DNA of 54,480 bases from a phage, in assembly GCA_018865545.1 (NCBI GenBank), contig GCA_018865545.1_3633.2; one strand, given 5' to 3'. The translations under genes and the position numbers were made by a program. Below the pieces are notes generated by a model. The model was not told the origin of the DNA and did no database searches. It worked only from the letters and a program-made list of their open reading frames with translations. Positions 2,205 to 15,594 of this stretch are shown in pieces. Positions within the stretch are counted from its first letter, which is position 1. Every line of letters begins with the position of its first letter.

Positions 2205-3029
2205 ATGACAAGTATTTTACACACGACAGGTATTTTACCACACTATCAGAAGGACTATTCTTTCCCTGATTTATCTGGGGATATGTTGCAAATATACGAC
2301 AAAGTGCAAGGCGAAGTGTCGGAGCTACAGTTTAGTTCAGACCCTGATGATGAGCAAGAGTTTGATAAACAGATTTGTCGTGTAGAAAACGAGCTTATAG
2401 AGCTACAATCATTAGCCAAATCAACAGATATCGAAGACTTAAGGCGATACGTAGAGAATCTTGAAAACTTAGTGTTCGGGCTTTCGCAAGCTATTATAAA
2501 CATTGGCGAAATTGCTAAAGTTGCGTCTGACAAGTTGCCAGACAACACAGAAGATATTGAAGAAGCGTTGCAGAATATCTGCTATGAAGGAAGCTCTGCT
2601 CTCGGTTGTGAATGTAGCTTAGGCACTGCCCTCGAAGAACGTGGGTGGAGCCTAGCCCAAAAAACTTTTGTTTATCTTGTTATTGGTGGTGAGTTCCCAC
2701 GACTCTTACAACTTAATGCCCTTTTTGGAAACAGTCAGAGCGATAATATTGCATTAGGTATTGATGGTTGGTTCTGCTTAAGAGGTAAAGAATTAACATT
2801 TTGTCGTGGCGATGATGTGTTAATTCTCAATGCTTCTAAACCTGGTGTTGGAATAACAGTAAGACTTAATGGTAAGTCCACTAATTTCCACACCACAGAA
2901 TTGACAGATATTTTTATGGACATATTCGATCCTACAGAAGACGAAATTCTTATGTATGAAATGACCAGTGGAAAAAGGTATGATATTTTGTTGTGGAGAA
3001 ATATTTTCGGTAAGAAGAAAAGTTTATAG
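2205..3029 (+). CDS. hypothetical protein
   Basis: 274-aa ORF, weak RBS; no motif recognised. Confidence 0.45.
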   Translation: MTSILHTTGILPHYQKDYSFPDLSGDMLQIYDKVQGEVSELQFSSDPDDEQEFDKQICRVENELIELQSLAKSTDIEDLRRYVENLENLVFGLSQAIINIGEIAKVASDKLPDNTEDIEEALQNICYEGSSALGCECSLGTALEERGWSLAQKTFVYLVIGGEFPRLLQLNALFGNSQSDNIALGIDGWFCLRGKELTFCRGDDVLILNASKPGVGITVRLNGKSTNFHTTELTDIFMDIFDPTEDEILMYEMTSGKRYDILLWRNIFGKKKSL

Positions 3030-3285
3030 TATGATATTTTATCGCTGATATTTGTTTTCCCTGTGATATTTTTGTCACAGGGAAAGTTTCAACAACAGAT
3101 ATTTTCTTGATACTTTAAAACTCTACCAGAATTTAAAATTCTGTAAATTTAGAAAACTATTACTTATAAGCGTTTCGACACAATTTTGTTATGAAAGCCT
3201 TGTTTTTATATAAAAACCTGTTTTAGCATGAGTGGTAGGATCACACTCCATACTACCTTTATTCCTACAGATGAGCACCTCCATG

Positions 3286-3500
3286 TCCGAAAACTCGGTT
3301 CTCGATCGAAAATTCATTTTCCAGATCGTATTTGCTCCTTACGGAGAAAATTTTTTAGGGCTACAAATTTCAGTTCTCGATCAGTTTTTCGATTTCAAAA
3401 TCGTATTTGTTTTTTCTTGCGAAAAATTTCGCACGCTCAGTTCTCGATCGAGTTTTCAAAATCGAAATCGTATTTGCTCTATAGCGCGAAAAAATTTTTA
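3286..3500. repeat. three tandem ~68-bp direct repeats (iteron-like), core GTTCTCGATCG...AAATCGTATTTG
   Basis: Direct inspection: units starting near 3286, 3361 and 3428 share GTTCTCGATC(G/A), TTTTC, AAATCGTATTTG and GCGAAAAAATTT blocks. Confidence 0.6.
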
Positions 3501-3881
3501 TGGGTATCATAATTCTATCACACACTTAAACGCAAAGCAACATAAAAATTTTTGTTGAATGATAATCATTCTCATTTGCAGAATGACAGGTAGGATCGGT
3601 GTCTTATCCTCCCCCGTTGACCATCGTCGCCGTAGTTTGAAGTTTATAGCCGTTCTCGGCTTATCTCTTTGTTAGATATAGATTAACATAATTGATAAAG
3701 AAAGCAAGCGTTAATTGTAATCTTTACGTTTCTTTACAAATTTATTTTTGACGAGTTACCGGCGATCGACCTTCCAACCAGCGCCCTGGTATGTTAGCCC
3801 CGCCTTTACGCCGTGGGGATGGCGTTTCCTCTTCTGTATGTGAAACATTATAAGCCCGACCCCCGGGCTTGTCAAACATTT

Positions 3882-4148
3882 TTATTGTTTATTTTCTTGC
3901 CAGGTTAGGACACCTAGCCAGAAATGGCAATCACCTTTCGCCCATTGTGGTATATTGCTTTCTTTCCCACCTTCCCGCGCCCAGGAATAACCGCCCGTGT
4001 AACTTTGCAATTGATAACTATCCTCGACCTTATAATCTGACAGGCTGAGAACTGTTTCTACCTTTAAGCCCGTTGCGCTCGCTACCTGGTGGATAGTTCC
4101 CCCTTGCCAGCCTAACGCGTGCATAAGGTGCAATGTGGTCGTGGTCAT
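3882..4148 (-). CDS. hypothetical protein (isolated minus-strand gene)
   Basis: 88-aa ORF; AGGA RBS 9 nt upstream; possible divergent promoter TTGCCT-16-TATAGA; hairpin GCCCGGGGGTCGGGC downstream. Confidence 0.4.
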   Translation of the reverse strand: MTTTTLHLMHALGWQGGTIHQVASATGLKVETVLSLSDYKVEDSYQLQSYTGGYSWAREGGKESNIPQWAKGDCHFWLGVLTWQENKQ

Positions 4149-4224
4149 TTTTTCTATTCCTCTGTTAGTTGGCTAGTTGTTAAAATTATATCTATAACCA
4201 GCCAGGTTAGCAAGGCAAATAAAA

Positions 4225-4280
4225 GAGAAAAATTTTTTAAAAATAGTATTGACAGCTAGGTAGTATAGATCTACTATGTA
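4225..4280 (+). promoter_or_regulatory. sigma70-like promoter TTGACA-17-TACTAT with AT-rich upstream element (repeat copy 1)
   Basis: TTGACA at 4249-4254, TACTAT at 4272-4277; identical copy at 9289-9317. Confidence 0.55.
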
Positions 4281-4332
4281 CACATCAAGGCGATACACCG
4301 CCACCAACCAACCTAAAAAGGGGTGAATTAAT

Positions 4333-4956
4333 ATGAAAACCATCGTTAACGCTGAGAATGTATCTTTCGATAAGTTGAGCGACGCACAAAAAGAAAAAGC
4401 CATTGATCTTATTCGTGAGCGTGAAAGAGAAAGTAATAATGATTTCTTTGCTGATAGTGTCATTGAAGACTATAAGAATGACATTTTGCCAGAGTACGGG
4501 ATCGATGACGCGGTTATCTATTGGTCAGGATTCTGGTCGCAAGGCGACGGCGCATCAATCAGCACTGACCGCGTGGATATTGAAAAATTTTTAAGAAAAG
4601 TTAAATCTTTAACAAAATTCAGAGGGATCCGCAAACTATTTGATCTCGGTGAATATAGTCCGTTATATGCAAGCATTGAGCGGGATAATTACAGCCGCTA
4701 CCACCATGAAAATACTGTTTCCGGTTACGTTGACACTATGTATTGCGGCGATTTAACGGCAAAGCAGGAAGATTTGACCAATCAGCTTGAAAACTTGTTA
4801 ACTGAAACGATCCGCGATCTGTCTTGTAAACTTTACAGAGATTTAGAATCAGCCTACGATGACCAGTTTACAGATGAAGCCATCACAGAATCAATCGAAG
4901 CCAATGATTATCGTTTTGATATTGATGAAGATGGAAAAGTTTACGCTATCGCTTAA
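4333..4956 (+). CDS. hypothetical acidic early protein
   Basis: ORF track; AAAGGGG RBS; shares its first 8 codons (MKTIVNAE) with the gene at 9373. Confidence 0.6.
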   Translation: MKTIVNAENVSFDKLSDAQKEKAIDLIRERERESNNDFFADSVIEDYKNDILPEYGIDDAVIYWSGFWSQGDGASISTDRVDIEKFLRKVKSLTKFRGIRKLFDLGEYSPLYASIERDNYSRYHHENTVSGYVDTMYCGDLTAKQEDLTNQLENLLTETIRDLSCKLYRDLESAYDDQFTDEAITESIEANDYRFDIDEDGKVYAIA

Positions 4957-10054: not shown

Positions 10055-10279
10055 ATGGATAAATTAACAAAGATTGAACATGAAGTTATGGATCTTGCAA
10101 GGGCTAATAGGCCATTTGACAAGATTTTCTCTAAGGAGAATAAAGAGATCTTGAAAGGTCTAACGCAAGGTCAAAAAGACGGCTTGCGCCGCTTATATCG
10201 TGAGGCGTATGACTATTTTCGCTGGTGGGAAATAGAAGAGGCTAACGCGAAAATAGAAGGCCTAGAAAATTTAGTATAA
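10055..10279 (+). CDS. hypothetical protein
   Basis: ORF track 9974..10279; start moved to ATG10055 behind GAAGGT RBS; GC hairpin 10017-10040 upstream. Confidence 0.45.
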   Translation: MDKLTKIEHEVMDLARANRPFDKIFSKENKEILKGLTQGQKDGLRRLYREAYDYFRWWEIEEANAKIEGLENLV

Positions 10280-12598: not shown

Positions 12599-12790
12599 AT
12601 GGATGTACCACAAGTTAGAAAGGTATTAGCAGCGTTACGCTATCACAATCATAGCAAGGTGAAGAATGATCCTGATTATGTTGATTCCAGCTTGGAGGAA
12701 GACACCTTGCAAGCTATAAGCCATATGCAGGAATTGCTTAAGCGTATGACAGAGAAGAACAGATCTGATTATATAGGTGAAGAGATTTAA
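12599..12790 (+). CDS. hypothetical protein
   Basis: ORF track; AAAGGAG RBS. Confidence 0.5.
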   Translation: MDVPQVRKVLAALRYHNHSKVKNDPDYVDSSLEEDTLQAISHMQELLKRMTEKNRSDYIGEEI

Positions 12791-12821
12791 TCTCTTACAA
12801 CCGCACAAAGTAAAATTGTAC

Positions 12822-12850
12822 AAGGGGCGCATTAAGCGCCCTTTATTTTT
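12822..12850 (+). terminator. rho-independent terminator ending the plus-strand cluster
   Basis: Hairpin GGGGCGC-ATTA-AGCGCCC followed by TTTATTTTTG. Confidence 0.6.
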
Positions 12851-13235
12851 GCCCTAACAAGTATGATAAGTTTTATCTATCAAAACACCACACAGAAAAA
12901 AGTGAATAAAACGCGGTATCGAGCTAAACGAGGGCAGACAATACAACGGCAAGGCTGAACATTTAAGGCCGTTATAACGCGATTCAGGCCGCTTAAAATC
13001 GATCCCCACCACGAACAACCCCCACAAAATGACTAAAACGACACAACATGACCTAAATGATAACCATTATCAATAACATAAGCATTTTTATGCGTTTTTA
13101 GTGAATATCTATTTAAATGATAATGACTCTCAACAACAAACTAACACGACCGAAGCGATTTAATCGCCTACCACAAAATTAATCATTTGTAAAGAACAAT
13201 TTAAAAGCTGCGTAAGTGGCGCGACCGTAGGGAGC

Positions 13236-13460
13236 GACACAATAACGCAGTAGTAACCCCTCCCCTCACTCCTTACAGTCGCCCGGTATCGGGCTAGCGT
13301 TATTATGTCGCTACGCGCCAACGCGTTAACAATTTTGCAAAGAAGCCTGCTTTGCAGGTTAAGCGCATTGCGCTTAATCGCGTAGCGACTATGTGAAATT
13401 ATAACAGTTAAATTATTAATAAAATCTTGCAAAATTGTTAACCTACTGCGTTATTGTGTC
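13236..13460. repeat. nested and interleaved inverted repeats
   Basis: 18-bp perfect IR GACACAATAACGCAGTAG (13236-13253) / CTACTGCGTTATTGTGTC (13443-13460); 16-bp IR 13325-13340 / 13427-13442; 11-bp IR GTCGCTACGCG / CGCGTAGCGAC; palindrome TTAAGCGCATTGCGCTTAA. Confidence 0.7.
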
Positions 13461-13849
13461 CGGTACGGATTAGTTACGTATGTAACTAACAACTAACGTT
13501 GCTAAATTGTGTCCTGTATATAATTCGTTAAATTAACCAAATTAATCCCCGATTATTACGCAGTAAATCACCTGCTTTTAACCCTGTTAATGTGCCACGT
13601 AGTGATCTGCTATCTTGCCCAGGGATAACCGCATGGCATGCGGTTAAATGCTGTTAAGTGCCTGAAATGCCAGATCAATTTAGTCACTGCGTGATTATGA
13701 TTGCGACAATAATTTGCTTATGATTTGTTATGCTTTGTTATAATTTGCTATTTATTTGTTAAACACTCTTTTATCTTTCCTCTTTCATTTTTGTTATATT
13801 TGATTTGTTATCGTTTTCTTCCGTTTCATTTCGTTATTGAAAACAAGAA

Positions 13850-15250
13850 TTATTATCATTCATGTGCCTTAACAGGCTGGCAGGTCTGTTAGTGGTCTGG
13901 TTCTCTGTGTGGTCATGTGATGGCTGGCTTAGTAGCTTGGTTTTATTGTCTGGCCTGTTATTGTTAGCTTGCTTGTTGTTGTGTGGTGTATGTATCAGTT
14001 AGCTAGTGTATGATCTGGTGCGCATAACGTGTATTATGTTAAATCACTAAGCCCACAAATAAGGTGGCTTGTCAATAACAATAAGTGCTGTGTGCGGTAG
14101 TCTGGCCCATCAGTGCGCCCCTTTGTTGTGTGGTGCTCTCAGTGTGTGACCTGTCTGCTGTGTGCGCTGCGCCAAATCTCGAGCGGTTCTCGATCACAAT
14201 AGCTGTAAGATATTTTGTAAAGATTCGTAGTTTTTCTTGACACCCACAATCGTCCGTCTAACCCTTCAGAGATTTATCTGTGATTTTTACCCTTCAGAGA
14301 TAAATACAAACTATGAGCTACATCTGCCACAAGCATACCTGCCATGTCACATCACTAATCTTGCAAGGATATTTCTGTAAGTGAACCTGCACACAATGCA
14401 GCACGCGTCTTGTTGTGTGGGGAGGGTGGGGTAACAATCAGGAAGTGGTGTGGCTGTGATAACGTATTGGATAAAAACTCTGGCTGGCTTGTCGATGATA
14501 TTTGTGTGGGGAAATGCTGATGGGTAAGATATAAGACACTTGTCTCCGGCAGGGGTGGGGTGTGGAAAAGAAATGGGCCTGTCCGACCCATTGTGATATA
14601 GAAATGAAATGGCCATCTCACCATTGACCAGGTAAGCCAATATCAAGGCCAAATTCGTGGCACTCATCCCAGTCAAGACTTTGATTCCAGTTTGTAACTG
14701 TCCTCTCTGTGTGGTGGGTGTATGATGCTCTCTGTGACTGCTTTGGCATCTTTTTTGTCTGAGATTTCCCGAAAAGAGGTGTGTTGTCATTGAGTCTTCC
14801 GGCAGCCTTTTCACCCTTTTTGACTTGTCTCCCACAGGCATTCCACTGCTCCAGTGTCCTGTAACACATAAAATCATTCTCCTGTAATATCTGGTGTGAG
14901 GATAATGACAGATTGTATCAGATGCGTCAAGTCTGTTGACCAGAGTGTGTGGGGAGTGGTGTCGTTATAAAAAAAAATTTTAGGGAGCTTTCCATGACTT
15001 ATTCTGTGGCTTCAGCAAGGCCATAAACCCAGATGTGGCGGGGCTTTCAGCTATGTTGTGTGTTGATCGCAAACAAGGATAAAATAATCAATATAAATGC
15101 AGATAAATGTTGTTTTATTGTGTTTGTGTAACTGGGGTGTCGTGTCTTGATAGGTTATGACCTGTACATATTTTGTACAATTGTGTGGTGTGCAGAGTTT
15201 GGGTGGCAATTCCCCAGACGGGGCAGGGTAGGTTATGGTGGAGAGCAGGG
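13850..15250. repeat. GT-skewed non-coding region with recurring TGTGTGG(G) motifs and G-tracts
   Basis: Direct inspection: TGTGTGG-like motifs near 13975, 14125, 14412, 14446, 14503, 14556, 14707, 14945, 15181; GGGGAGGGTGGGG at 14419-14431. Confidence 0.5.
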
Positions 15251-15270
15251 GCATGGTTAGCCCCATATGA

Positions 15271-15594
15271 TCAGGGTTGTGCGTCTGTTTGTTTGAACTG
15301 GTCTTTTGAACGTATTACATAACCACAACCATATTTTCTCAGCCAGACCAGTTCCCATGGACTATCACTCAGGTTTTTCCTGTTTATCTCTTTTAGCTGG
15401 GCAACCGCATCGTCCCATGATGTGACTTCGAGATAACCGATAAGACTGTCCTCTCCAAAATCTCCGTAATCAAATGTGCATCTGACCTTGGCGATAAACT
15501 CTGTCTGTGGATTTTCAGGTTTTACAAAAGCCCAGTGAAAGATTTGTTCTGTGCAATGCTCATTAACCCACCTGATTTGTGTGGTCATAATCAC
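15271..15594 (-). CDS. hypothetical protein
   Basis: ORF track; last gene of the leftward cluster. Confidence 0.5.
   Translation of the reverse strand: MIMTTQIRWVNEHCTEQIFHWAFVKPENPQTEFIAKVRCTFDYGDFGEDSLIGYLEVTSWDDAVAQLKEINRKNLSDSPWELVWLRKYGCGYVIRSKDQFKQTDAQP

Follow-up and report, generated by a model that had tools for sequence, protein, structure and literature searches.

An oriented TGTGTGG array at the predicted terminal repeat of an rV5-like phage

In the 54,480-nt phage contig analysed here (hereafter the window), positions 13850-15250 combine an excess of G and T on the plus strand with a recurrent heptamer, TGTGTGG, which raises the question of what kind of element this stretch is and what the heptamers are for. 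The window belongs to an rV5-like phage of the subfamily Vequintavirinae; its nearest relative is Escherichia phage Av-05 (genus Avunavirus), with approximately 90% identity in the region, compared to approximately 87% for phage TH18. The plus-strand gene block stops at 12790 and the minus-strand genes end at 15271, and therefore the GT-rich stretch sits between convergent gene blocks. The 2.4 kb between these blocks are non-coding apart from one minus-strand gene for an 83-amino acid (aa) protein at 14618-14869. Our answer is that the stretch is very probably a genome end, made up of the right three-quarters of a direct terminal repeat (DTR) and about 1 kb of unique left-end DNA with one small minus-strand gene, and that the TGTGTGG array probably concerns end processing or packaging.

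The initial annotation had called the GT skew strong and unlike the rest of the window. Indeed, no other part of the window exceeded this region in G+T content at any scale tried. G+T makes up 58.4% of 13850-15250; among all 1401-bp spans of the window, the one with the highest G+T content begins at 13894, and among 250-bp spans the maximum (70%) is reached by the one beginning at 13769. G-runs are present as well, as exemplified by GGGGAGGGTGGGG at 14419-14431.

Exact TGTGTGG occurs eight times on the plus strand of these 1.4 kb and not once on the minus strand, in agreement with the strand specificity initially noted, while the remaining 53 kb of the window contain six plus-strand and 12 minus-strand copies. 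All seven plus-strand copies of the extended word TGTGTGG[GT]G in the window fall within 13850-15250. Dinucleotide-preserving shuffles of the region (n = 2000) contained 0.96 copies on average and five at most. Because the stretch is patchy with many runs composed of G and T only, letters were also shuffled within blocks of 10-50 nt, which keeps the patchy local composition; in this case 0.32-0.56 copies were expected and none of 3000 shuffles reached eight. Eight observed copies against 0.3-1.0 expected thus exceed what base composition predicts, and the local-composition shuffles (0.3-0.6 expected) imply that the order of the letters is non-random and not explained by composition alone. Relative to the k-mer background of the window itself, no strand-specific 7-mer in 13762-15270 was more over-represented than TGTGTGG (8 versus 0.24 expected, p = 2e-10). 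A weight matrix derived from the eight sites (consensus yTkTGTGTGGkG) found 12 matches on the plus strand of the same interval and none on the minus strand, and the earlier count of at least nine TGTGTGG-like motifs therefore holds, with eight of them exact. The eight copies are separated by 74, 147, 287, 89, 205, 238 and 236 bp; three lie in the predicted DTR and five to its right, with none on the opposite strand:

13906-13912, plus strand: TGTGTGG copy 1, inside the DTR; present in TH18, lost in Av-05 by a 45-bp deletion
13980-13986, plus strand: TGTGTGG copy 2, inside the DTR; kept in Av-05 and TH18
14127-14133, plus strand: TGTGTGG copy 3, inside the DTR; TGTGTGA in Av-05, kept in TH18
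14414-14431, plus strand: TGTGTGG copy 4, running into the G-tract GGGGAGGGTGGGG; kept in Av-05, diverged in TH18
14497-14511, plus strand: GATATTT copy 3 fused to TGTGTGG copy 5 (GATATTTGTGTGGGG), the latter starting at 14503; conserved in all three close relatives
14708-14714, plus strand: TGTGTGG copy 6, within the 83-aa gene and on the strand opposite to it
14946-14952, plus strand: TGTGTGG copy 7; kept in Av-05, deleted in TH18
15182-15188, plus strand: TGTGTGG copy 8; conserved in all three, with a second overlapping copy in TH18
12888-12894, minus strand: single exact TGTGTGG of the C+A-rich left arm, with a weaker copy at 13022-13028

Copies 7 and 8 are located in the 400-bp spacer preceding the next gene, and copy 7 lies just upstream, in minus-strand sense, of promoter-like sites at 14939-14902. 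Hidden small genes were considered as a source of the motif and rejected, as the minus strand downstream of each copy does not offer a Shine-Dalgarno sequence with an open reading frame (ORF); at 13906 the would-be small ORF comprises only 15 codons and lacks a ribosome-binding site. Comparison of the window with itself by BLAST revealed no second copy of the region elsewhere; a match in two places seen in another search can most likely be put down to the inverted 86-bp segment described below.

What places this array at a genome end is the homology of its surroundings to terminal repeats delimited in related phages. Short DTRs have been reported in three genera of Vequintavirinae, and their existence is thus already published: Erwinia phage Hena1 has an annotated DTR of 519 bp, phage Gotham has 459-bp terminal repeats, and for Klebsiella phage KPP-1 a 514-bp DTR (MT438396, 116316-116829) was established from twofold read coverage and PhageTerm, which assigned T7-type packaging. 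The boundaries ta/AACAC (left) and GTCCGTC/TA (right), with the slash marking the repeat edge, are common to Hena1, KPP-1 and the window. When checked on the sequence, the KPP-1 coordinates ran exactly from ta/AACAC to GTCCGTC/TA, and the boundary rule returned the known lengths of 519 bp for Hena1 and 514 bp for KPP-1; in the window it gives 497 bp. On this basis we predict a DTR at 13762-14258. With both boundaries at these positions, the GT-rich stretch covers most of the DTR and approximately 1 kb of adjoining DNA. The boundaries, a conserved 29-mer, the length class and the location in a non-coding gap flanked by convergent gene blocks are common to this locus and the DTRs of Hena1, KPP-1 and Gotham; the repeat was measured in those three phages, whereas here it is predicted from sequence. 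The first half of the DTR is T-rich and contains two of the TGTGTGG copies. Landmarks in and beside the DTR are as follows:

13724-13762, plus strand: four TTTG[CT]TA[TA] words with 10-11 bp spacing, ending at the left DTR boundary; the array is longer in TH18
13762-14258, no strand assigned: predicted DTR, 497 bp, starting with AACACTCTTTTATC and ending with TCGTCCGTC, followed by TAAC; defined by homology of the boundaries
14017-14045, plus strand: near-invariant 29-mer GGTGCGCATAACGTGTATTATGTTAAATC in the middle of the DTR
14186-14195, plus strand: GTTCTCGATC; other exact copies in the window only at 3298, 3373 and 3440
14209-14215, plus strand: GATATTT copy 1 (GATATTTTGTAAAGAT), about 45 bp inside the right DTR boundary
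14262-14301, plus strand: two CCCTTCAGAGAT repeats directly right of the DTR end; three in Av-05 and TH18
14368-14374, plus strand: GATATTT copy 2
14544-14565, plus strand: CTCCGGCAGGGGTGGGGTGTGG, a CTCCGG..GGGGNGGGG element found at this position in all genera examined

The 29-mer hardly varies within the subfamily: a search including it retrieved 216 phage records, with 164 matches that were 90-95% identical, typically across those 29 bases alone. In Hena1 it occupies positions 288-316 of the DTR, and it is present in the corresponding region of Bas49, 51, 53 and 56. Its 5' end resembles the TGTGTGG word; it reads GTGGTGCG in the window, and Av-05, TH18 and the Seunavirus KE22 have GTGTGGTGCG instead. 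In the right half of the DTR the 29-mer is followed by TGTGTGG copy 3, GTTCTCGATC, GATATTTTGTAAAGAT and the right boundary, and the block 14171-14273, to which GTTCTCGATC belongs, aligns even with Seunavirus phages. Directly right of the DTR end other genera carry CTCTTCAG-type repeats; beyond the CCCTTCAGAGAT repeats of the window the order is GATATTT, TGTGTGGGGAGGGTGGGG, GATATTTGTGTGGGG, CTCCGGCAGGGGTGGGGTGTGG, a minus-strand terminator and the 83-aa gene. The CTCCGG..GGGGNGGGG element has a counterpart in every genus examined, its GGGGNGGGG part being located here at 14548-14565. A 14-25-nt core of the 29-mer, GCGYATAAYGKGTATTATGTTAAAT, was also detected in six IMG/VR contigs, one of them 262 kb long, with GTATTATGTTAAAT common to all six. 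Where the flank suffices, these contigs are without the repeat boundaries and the GATATTT offsets described below, and therefore the core seems to be a self-contained element used beyond Vequintavirinae.

To compare the equivalent region of related phages, we combined 1.5 kb of sequence from each of six genera, taken rightward from the 29-mer. TGTGTGG and GATATTT were the top strand-biased 7-mers occurring in all six, with 17 copies of TGTGTGG versus one reverse complement and 19 copies of GATATTT versus one. The GATATTT array is the better conserved of the two: each genus has three or four plus-strand copies at conserved offsets from the 29-mer (about +133 to +179, +237 to +338 and, in five of six genera, +322 to +466), which straddle the right DTR boundary. 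For TGTGTGG, the DTR plus 1.2 kb to its right contained five copies in Bas56 (0.29 expected), three in Hena1 (0.22 expected), two in CR3 (0.15 expected) and two in PVP-SE1 (0.18 expected), nearly all on the same strand. By genus this corresponds to five or six copies in Vequintavirus, three in Henunavirus, two in Certrevirus and two in Seunavirus (one in KE22). The heptamer thus keeps its orientation and its place beyond the right DTR end even between genera in which the surrounding sequence can no longer be aligned. In the Av-05 clade individual copies were gained and lost, with the total staying at 8-11.

In Vequintavirus the copies are regularly spaced. The Bas56 locus (2847-4838) has six plus-strand TGTGTGG copies at intervals of 431, 403, 402, 414 and 341 bp, corresponding to a coefficient of variation of 0.076 around a spacing of approximately 400 bp, and the same sites were found in ten other Vequintavirus loci; compared to random placement, the probability of such regularity is about 1e-4 in a post-hoc test. 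The ~400-bp intervals share nothing except TGTGTGG, and cryptic tandem repeats were therefore rejected. In the whole Bas56 genome this terminal locus is the densest plus-strand TGTGTGG cluster, with six copies in 2 kb versus 27 in 135 kb. A second Bas56 cluster, on the minus strand, has six copies in 2.3 kb (129156-131497) at a divergent strand switch between RNA ligase and polynucleotide kinase genes.

The landmark words of the DTR also recur at a distance within the window. The non-coding zone 2900-3560 contains six plus-strand GATATTT copies (2907-3098), three 63-nt direct repeats at 3294-3498 with spacings of 75 and 67 bp, each including GTTCTCGATC, and near 3560 an AT-rich palindrome resembling one at 13845-13861. 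These shared words and the palindrome suggest that this zone and the terminal repeat share a DNA-binding factor.

Taken as a whole, an explanation in which the GT-rich stretch is a genome end and the TGTGTGG array provides recognition sites for end processing or packaging is our favoured one, to which we give somewhat less than even weight. More specifically, the TGTGTGG(G/T)G words, all in one orientation, could be an array of sites recognized by a factor of the phage that acts on the concatemer junction, a proposal that we regard as possible but less likely than not. We infer that a protein reads the words and that this protein serves packaging or end processing, on four grounds: the copies share one orientation, they recur in other genera, the 29-mer has a similar sequence at its 5' end, and T7 provides the precedent described below. 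The factor could be the terminase, or else an accessory protein of end processing or end replication. The words might act jointly with the 29-mer, the three GATATTT copies, the CTTCAG repeats and the G-tracts; as many weak, individually dispensable sites they could mark which side of the repeat is which and help to assemble the complex that would cut at the two repeat boundaries and duplicate the repeat. The excess of G over C may partly be a second layer, in which RNA running toward the repeat has much C and little G directly after the gene ends.

The initial annotation had offered repeated protein-binding sites as one interpretation, and this is the best reading of the words, though a putative and partly supported one: non-random letter order, restriction to one strand and recurrence across genera that cannot be aligned speak for it, while no binding protein was identified and the conservation of the motif columns gave p = 0.06-0.15. 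Several observations weigh against recognition sites for packaging or end processing. Besides the lack of an identified reader of TGTGTGG, the annotations of the relatives do not include a terminase small subunit. To our knowledge, terminase sites span about 200 bp without running into coding sequence, compared to 1.5-2 kb for the array. GATATTT and GTTCTCGATC are also found in the second non-coding zone at 2900-3500, which suits a regulator or a replication initiator better than a terminase. Mydovirus has a single TGTGTGG copy and the distant contigs sharing only the 29-mer core have none, so that the array is not essential to a common mechanism. Among 11 Vequintavirus genomes the copies were mostly kept, with FV3 having lost three, and the higher conservation of the motif columns relative to their surroundings is slight and only suggestive (6 of 42 columns vary versus 11.5 expected, p = 0.15; p = 0.06 on total differences).

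Comparison with known systems gives this reading a precedent and also shows its limits. The closest one is the CCTAAAG series of phage T7, said to have been named 'SRL' by Dunn and Studier in 1983, in a phage whose terminal repeat reportedly measures 160 bp. In the first 340 bp of T7 we counted 11 CCTAAAG on the plus strand, three of them starting within the first 160 bp, and none on the minus strand; as in the window, a 7-bp word is confined to one strand of a short DTR and the adjoining unique DNA. However, the T7 words are ~13 bp apart over 170 bp, whereas TGTGTGG copies are 74-396 bp apart over 1.3 kb here and ~400 bp apart over 2 kb in Vequintavirus, unlike the dense T7 array. Moreover, the word itself is not CCTAAAG, copies enter coding sequence and the skew changes strand across the repeat. 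The lambda cosB R sites and the P1 pac hexamers occupy regions of ~100-200 bp with sites in both orientations or dependent on methylation. They likewise consist of several short repeated words beside a cut site, but the array described here is ten times longer and strictly confined to one strand. Chi (GCTGGTGG) and KOPS (GGGNAGGG) are oriented words, rich in G or in G and T, whose orientation switches at a reference point. The zone has three KOPS-like octamers in a mirrored arrangement (13265, minus strand; 14419 and 15221, plus strand), which is too few to test. The only Chi of the window is located at 10221, outside the terminal zone; Chi shares only GTGG with TGTGTGG, and the words would be on the wrong strand for RecBCD entering the nearby genome end.

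With a logic like that of Chi, KOPS and lambda cosQ, TGTGTGG could be a polar cis-acting signal of rV5-like phages, which we consider unlikely. A moving machine, such as the terminase motor, a replicative helicase-primase or a recombination nuclease, would read the word and could tell from the strand carrying it which side of the terminal repeat it had reached. If true, this would explain why the whole ~2-kb locus, beyond the repeat itself, is intolerant of insertions in phage Bas54 (see below), and the ~400-bp phasing of the six Vequintavirus copies would arise from a higher-order nucleoprotein structure formed at the concatemer junction.

Rho loading, an origin-like skew and G-quadruplexes are rival explanations, which we rank below end processing or packaging. 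The skew is mirrored across the repeat, and RNA running toward it from either side is C-rich and G-poor past the gene ends. The first 400 nt after the last plus-strand gene are C+A-rich with a GC skew of -0.22 (-0.05 to -0.26 in seven lineages) and G predominates over C in the right arm (+0.09 to +0.22, likewise in seven lineages); extremes in the window are -0.41 at 13000-13199, corresponding to C-rich plus-strand RNA, and +0.44 to +0.46 at 14400-14599 and 15100-15299, corresponding to C-rich minus-strand RNA. The skew could therefore mark Rho-loading (rut-like) zones, in which untranslated C-rich RNA past convergent units lets Rho stop transcription before the terminal repeat, and the CCACACA words would be a by-product of a composition restricted to C and A. 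In accordance with this, the sign pattern of the skew recurs in all seven lineages, coding mRNA of the window is G-rich instead, and C-rich tracts in RNA sense begin just after a gene end or terminator (12850-13200, 15270-14880 and 14570-14260, following the plus-strand block, the long minus-strand operon and the 83-aa gene, respectively), providing at least 80 nt of untranslated RNA with C well above G. Nevertheless, the local-composition shuffles described above show that letter order matters, one copy is embedded in a translated gene, the three DTR copies are located far downstream of the terminator, and CCACACA contains only one YC dinucleotide, the unit bound by the primary site of Rho. 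We judge Rho loading to be a rather unlikely explanation of the locus; composition of this type may explain part of the skew, not the word itself.

The same mirrored skew, flipping across the repeat in all lineages, would fit a start of replication or recombination, with forks or strand invasion proceeding outward from the repeat, the outward strand being G+T-rich as around bacterial origins, and GT-rich words favouring recombinase pairing or priming; RecA is said to prefer GT-rich single strands (Tracy and Kowalczykowski, in 1996). The four strongest G-tract sites are likewise mirrored, two on the minus strand to the left and two on the plus strand to the right, the phased AT-rich TTTGYTAT words abut the repeat, the iteron-like 10-mer GTTCTCGATC is shared with the three 63-nt direct repeats at 3294-3498, and the equivalent locus is essential in Bas54. 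Iteron origins combine repeated initiator sites with an AT-rich unwinding element and often with DnaA boxes; DnaA boxes with one mismatch are not clustered here, only two of the window's 30 falling in the zone. On the left arm, mirrored TGTGTGG copies are few (in this clade two, namely an exact and a weaker one on the minus strand of the window) and of mixed orientation in Vequintavirus, and no plus-strand promoter was predicted that could prime an R-loop. Furthermore, genes converge on the locus, as is the case at a terminus rather than an origin in most phages. Altogether, an origin appears improbable. Regulation of the locus by G-quadruplexes formed from the G-tracts is very improbable. All four sites of the 54-kb window with a G4Hunter score of at least 1.5 fall in the terminal zone (12999-13029 and 13252-13281, minus strand; 14406-14444 and 14547-14577, plus strand), the latter two inside the GT-rich stretch with a score of 1.76 each, and the GGGGNGGGG element has counterparts throughout the genera examined. 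However, four G3+ tracts with loops of 1-7 nt were found on neither strand of the whole window, which offers two-tetrad candidates only, GGGGAGGG is lost in TH18, and most TGTGTGG copies carry GG only. The G-quadruplex-prone character proposed in the initial annotation is thus weakly supported, by the two G4Hunter sites. Finally, the words may have no function and be neutral products of strand-biased mutation and slippage in non-coding DNA. Turnover of copies between close relatives, the non-significant conservation test and the lack of the array in some genera would agree with this, but the same word is found on the same strand and in the same place in genera with unalignable flanks, TGTGTGG (17 copies) exceeds the slippage product TGTGTGT (8 copies) in the six-genus pool, spacing in Vequintavirus is regular, and the Bas54 locus tolerates no insertions. 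We regard a lack of function as improbable.

The remaining features of the locus concern its gene units:

12822-12844, plus strand: intrinsic-terminator-like hairpin closing the plus-strand gene block
14572-14592, minus strand: intrinsic-terminator-like hairpin and T-run closing the small minus-strand unit
14618-14869, minus strand: 83-aa gene; ORF annotated in Av-05 and TH18

The 83-aa gene has promoter-like sites (14939-14902) and a terminator-like hairpin (14592-14572) of its own. Homologues matching its N-terminal half occur in 50 phage records of several genera; all Pfam matches of the protein were sub-threshold, with an N-terminal TLEQWNACGRQVKKGEKA stretch pointing to ArdcN and Rad4 BHD_2. 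Rfam gave no match at gathering scores in the whole window, nor at E values up to 1 in 12700-15400, and ARAGORN found no tRNA. Sigma-70-like sites were not enriched (16 versus 12.6 in shuffles, none in the DTR), and by eye no consistent -35/-10 elements accompany the TGTGTGG copies or the 29-mer. Among boxes for host factors, a Fur box was not found within three mismatches despite similar-looking AT-rich palindromes, and no pattern fitting sigma-54, CRP or IHF sites was recognized by eye. The phage naswa gene adjoining the locus (naswa_156, 465-728), annotated as 'DNA translocase FtsK', was considered as a reader of G-rich words and dropped, as by eye its product of 87 aa bears no likeness to an FtsK gamma domain; the label is probably wrong.

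Two further observations were made in the window. At 13325-13442 an 86-bp segment (13341-13426) is enclosed by perfect 16-nt inverted repeats, about 340-420 bp left of the predicted DTR; it contains two small hairpins and an AT-rich end by a TTGCAA hexamer. In Av-05 the segment is inverted (84 of 86 positions match when reverse-complemented, compared to 45 of 86 on the same strand), and in TH18 33 bp remain in the Av-05 orientation. It could be an invertible switch or reflect simple recombination between inverted repeats. The non-coding segment 3680-3900 is ~85% identical in many phage records, including some outside the clade (tuntematon, PHB05), and has at its end a terminator-like hairpin, AAGCCCGacccCGGGCTT, with a T-run after it. 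With a fold z of -2.0 and no Rfam match, it is a candidate conserved small RNA.

In searches of the literature on rV5-like terminal repeats, a Vequintavirus transcriptome and TGTGTGG we found no description of the array, and the DTR literature found does not mention oriented TGTGTGG and GATATTT arrays, the mirrored skew or shared boundary sequences. A transposon screen of phage Bas54 published in 2025 identified an intergenic region of ~2 kb that tolerates no insertions and left its role open. Judging from gene numbering and architecture, this region would correspond to the DTR and its two flanks, and the Bas54-type locus thereby gains an identity as a direct terminal repeat with both flanks. 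It also gains a list of parts, comprising the repeat boundaries, the 29-mer, three GATATTT copies, the CTTCAG repeats, the G-tracts and the oriented TGTGTGG array. Vequintavirinae, whose replication and packaging are largely unstudied, have broad host ranges and find use in therapy and biocontrol, and the boundary sequences let the true genome ends be predicted in the many records of the subfamily that were deposited as circular or arbitrarily opened.

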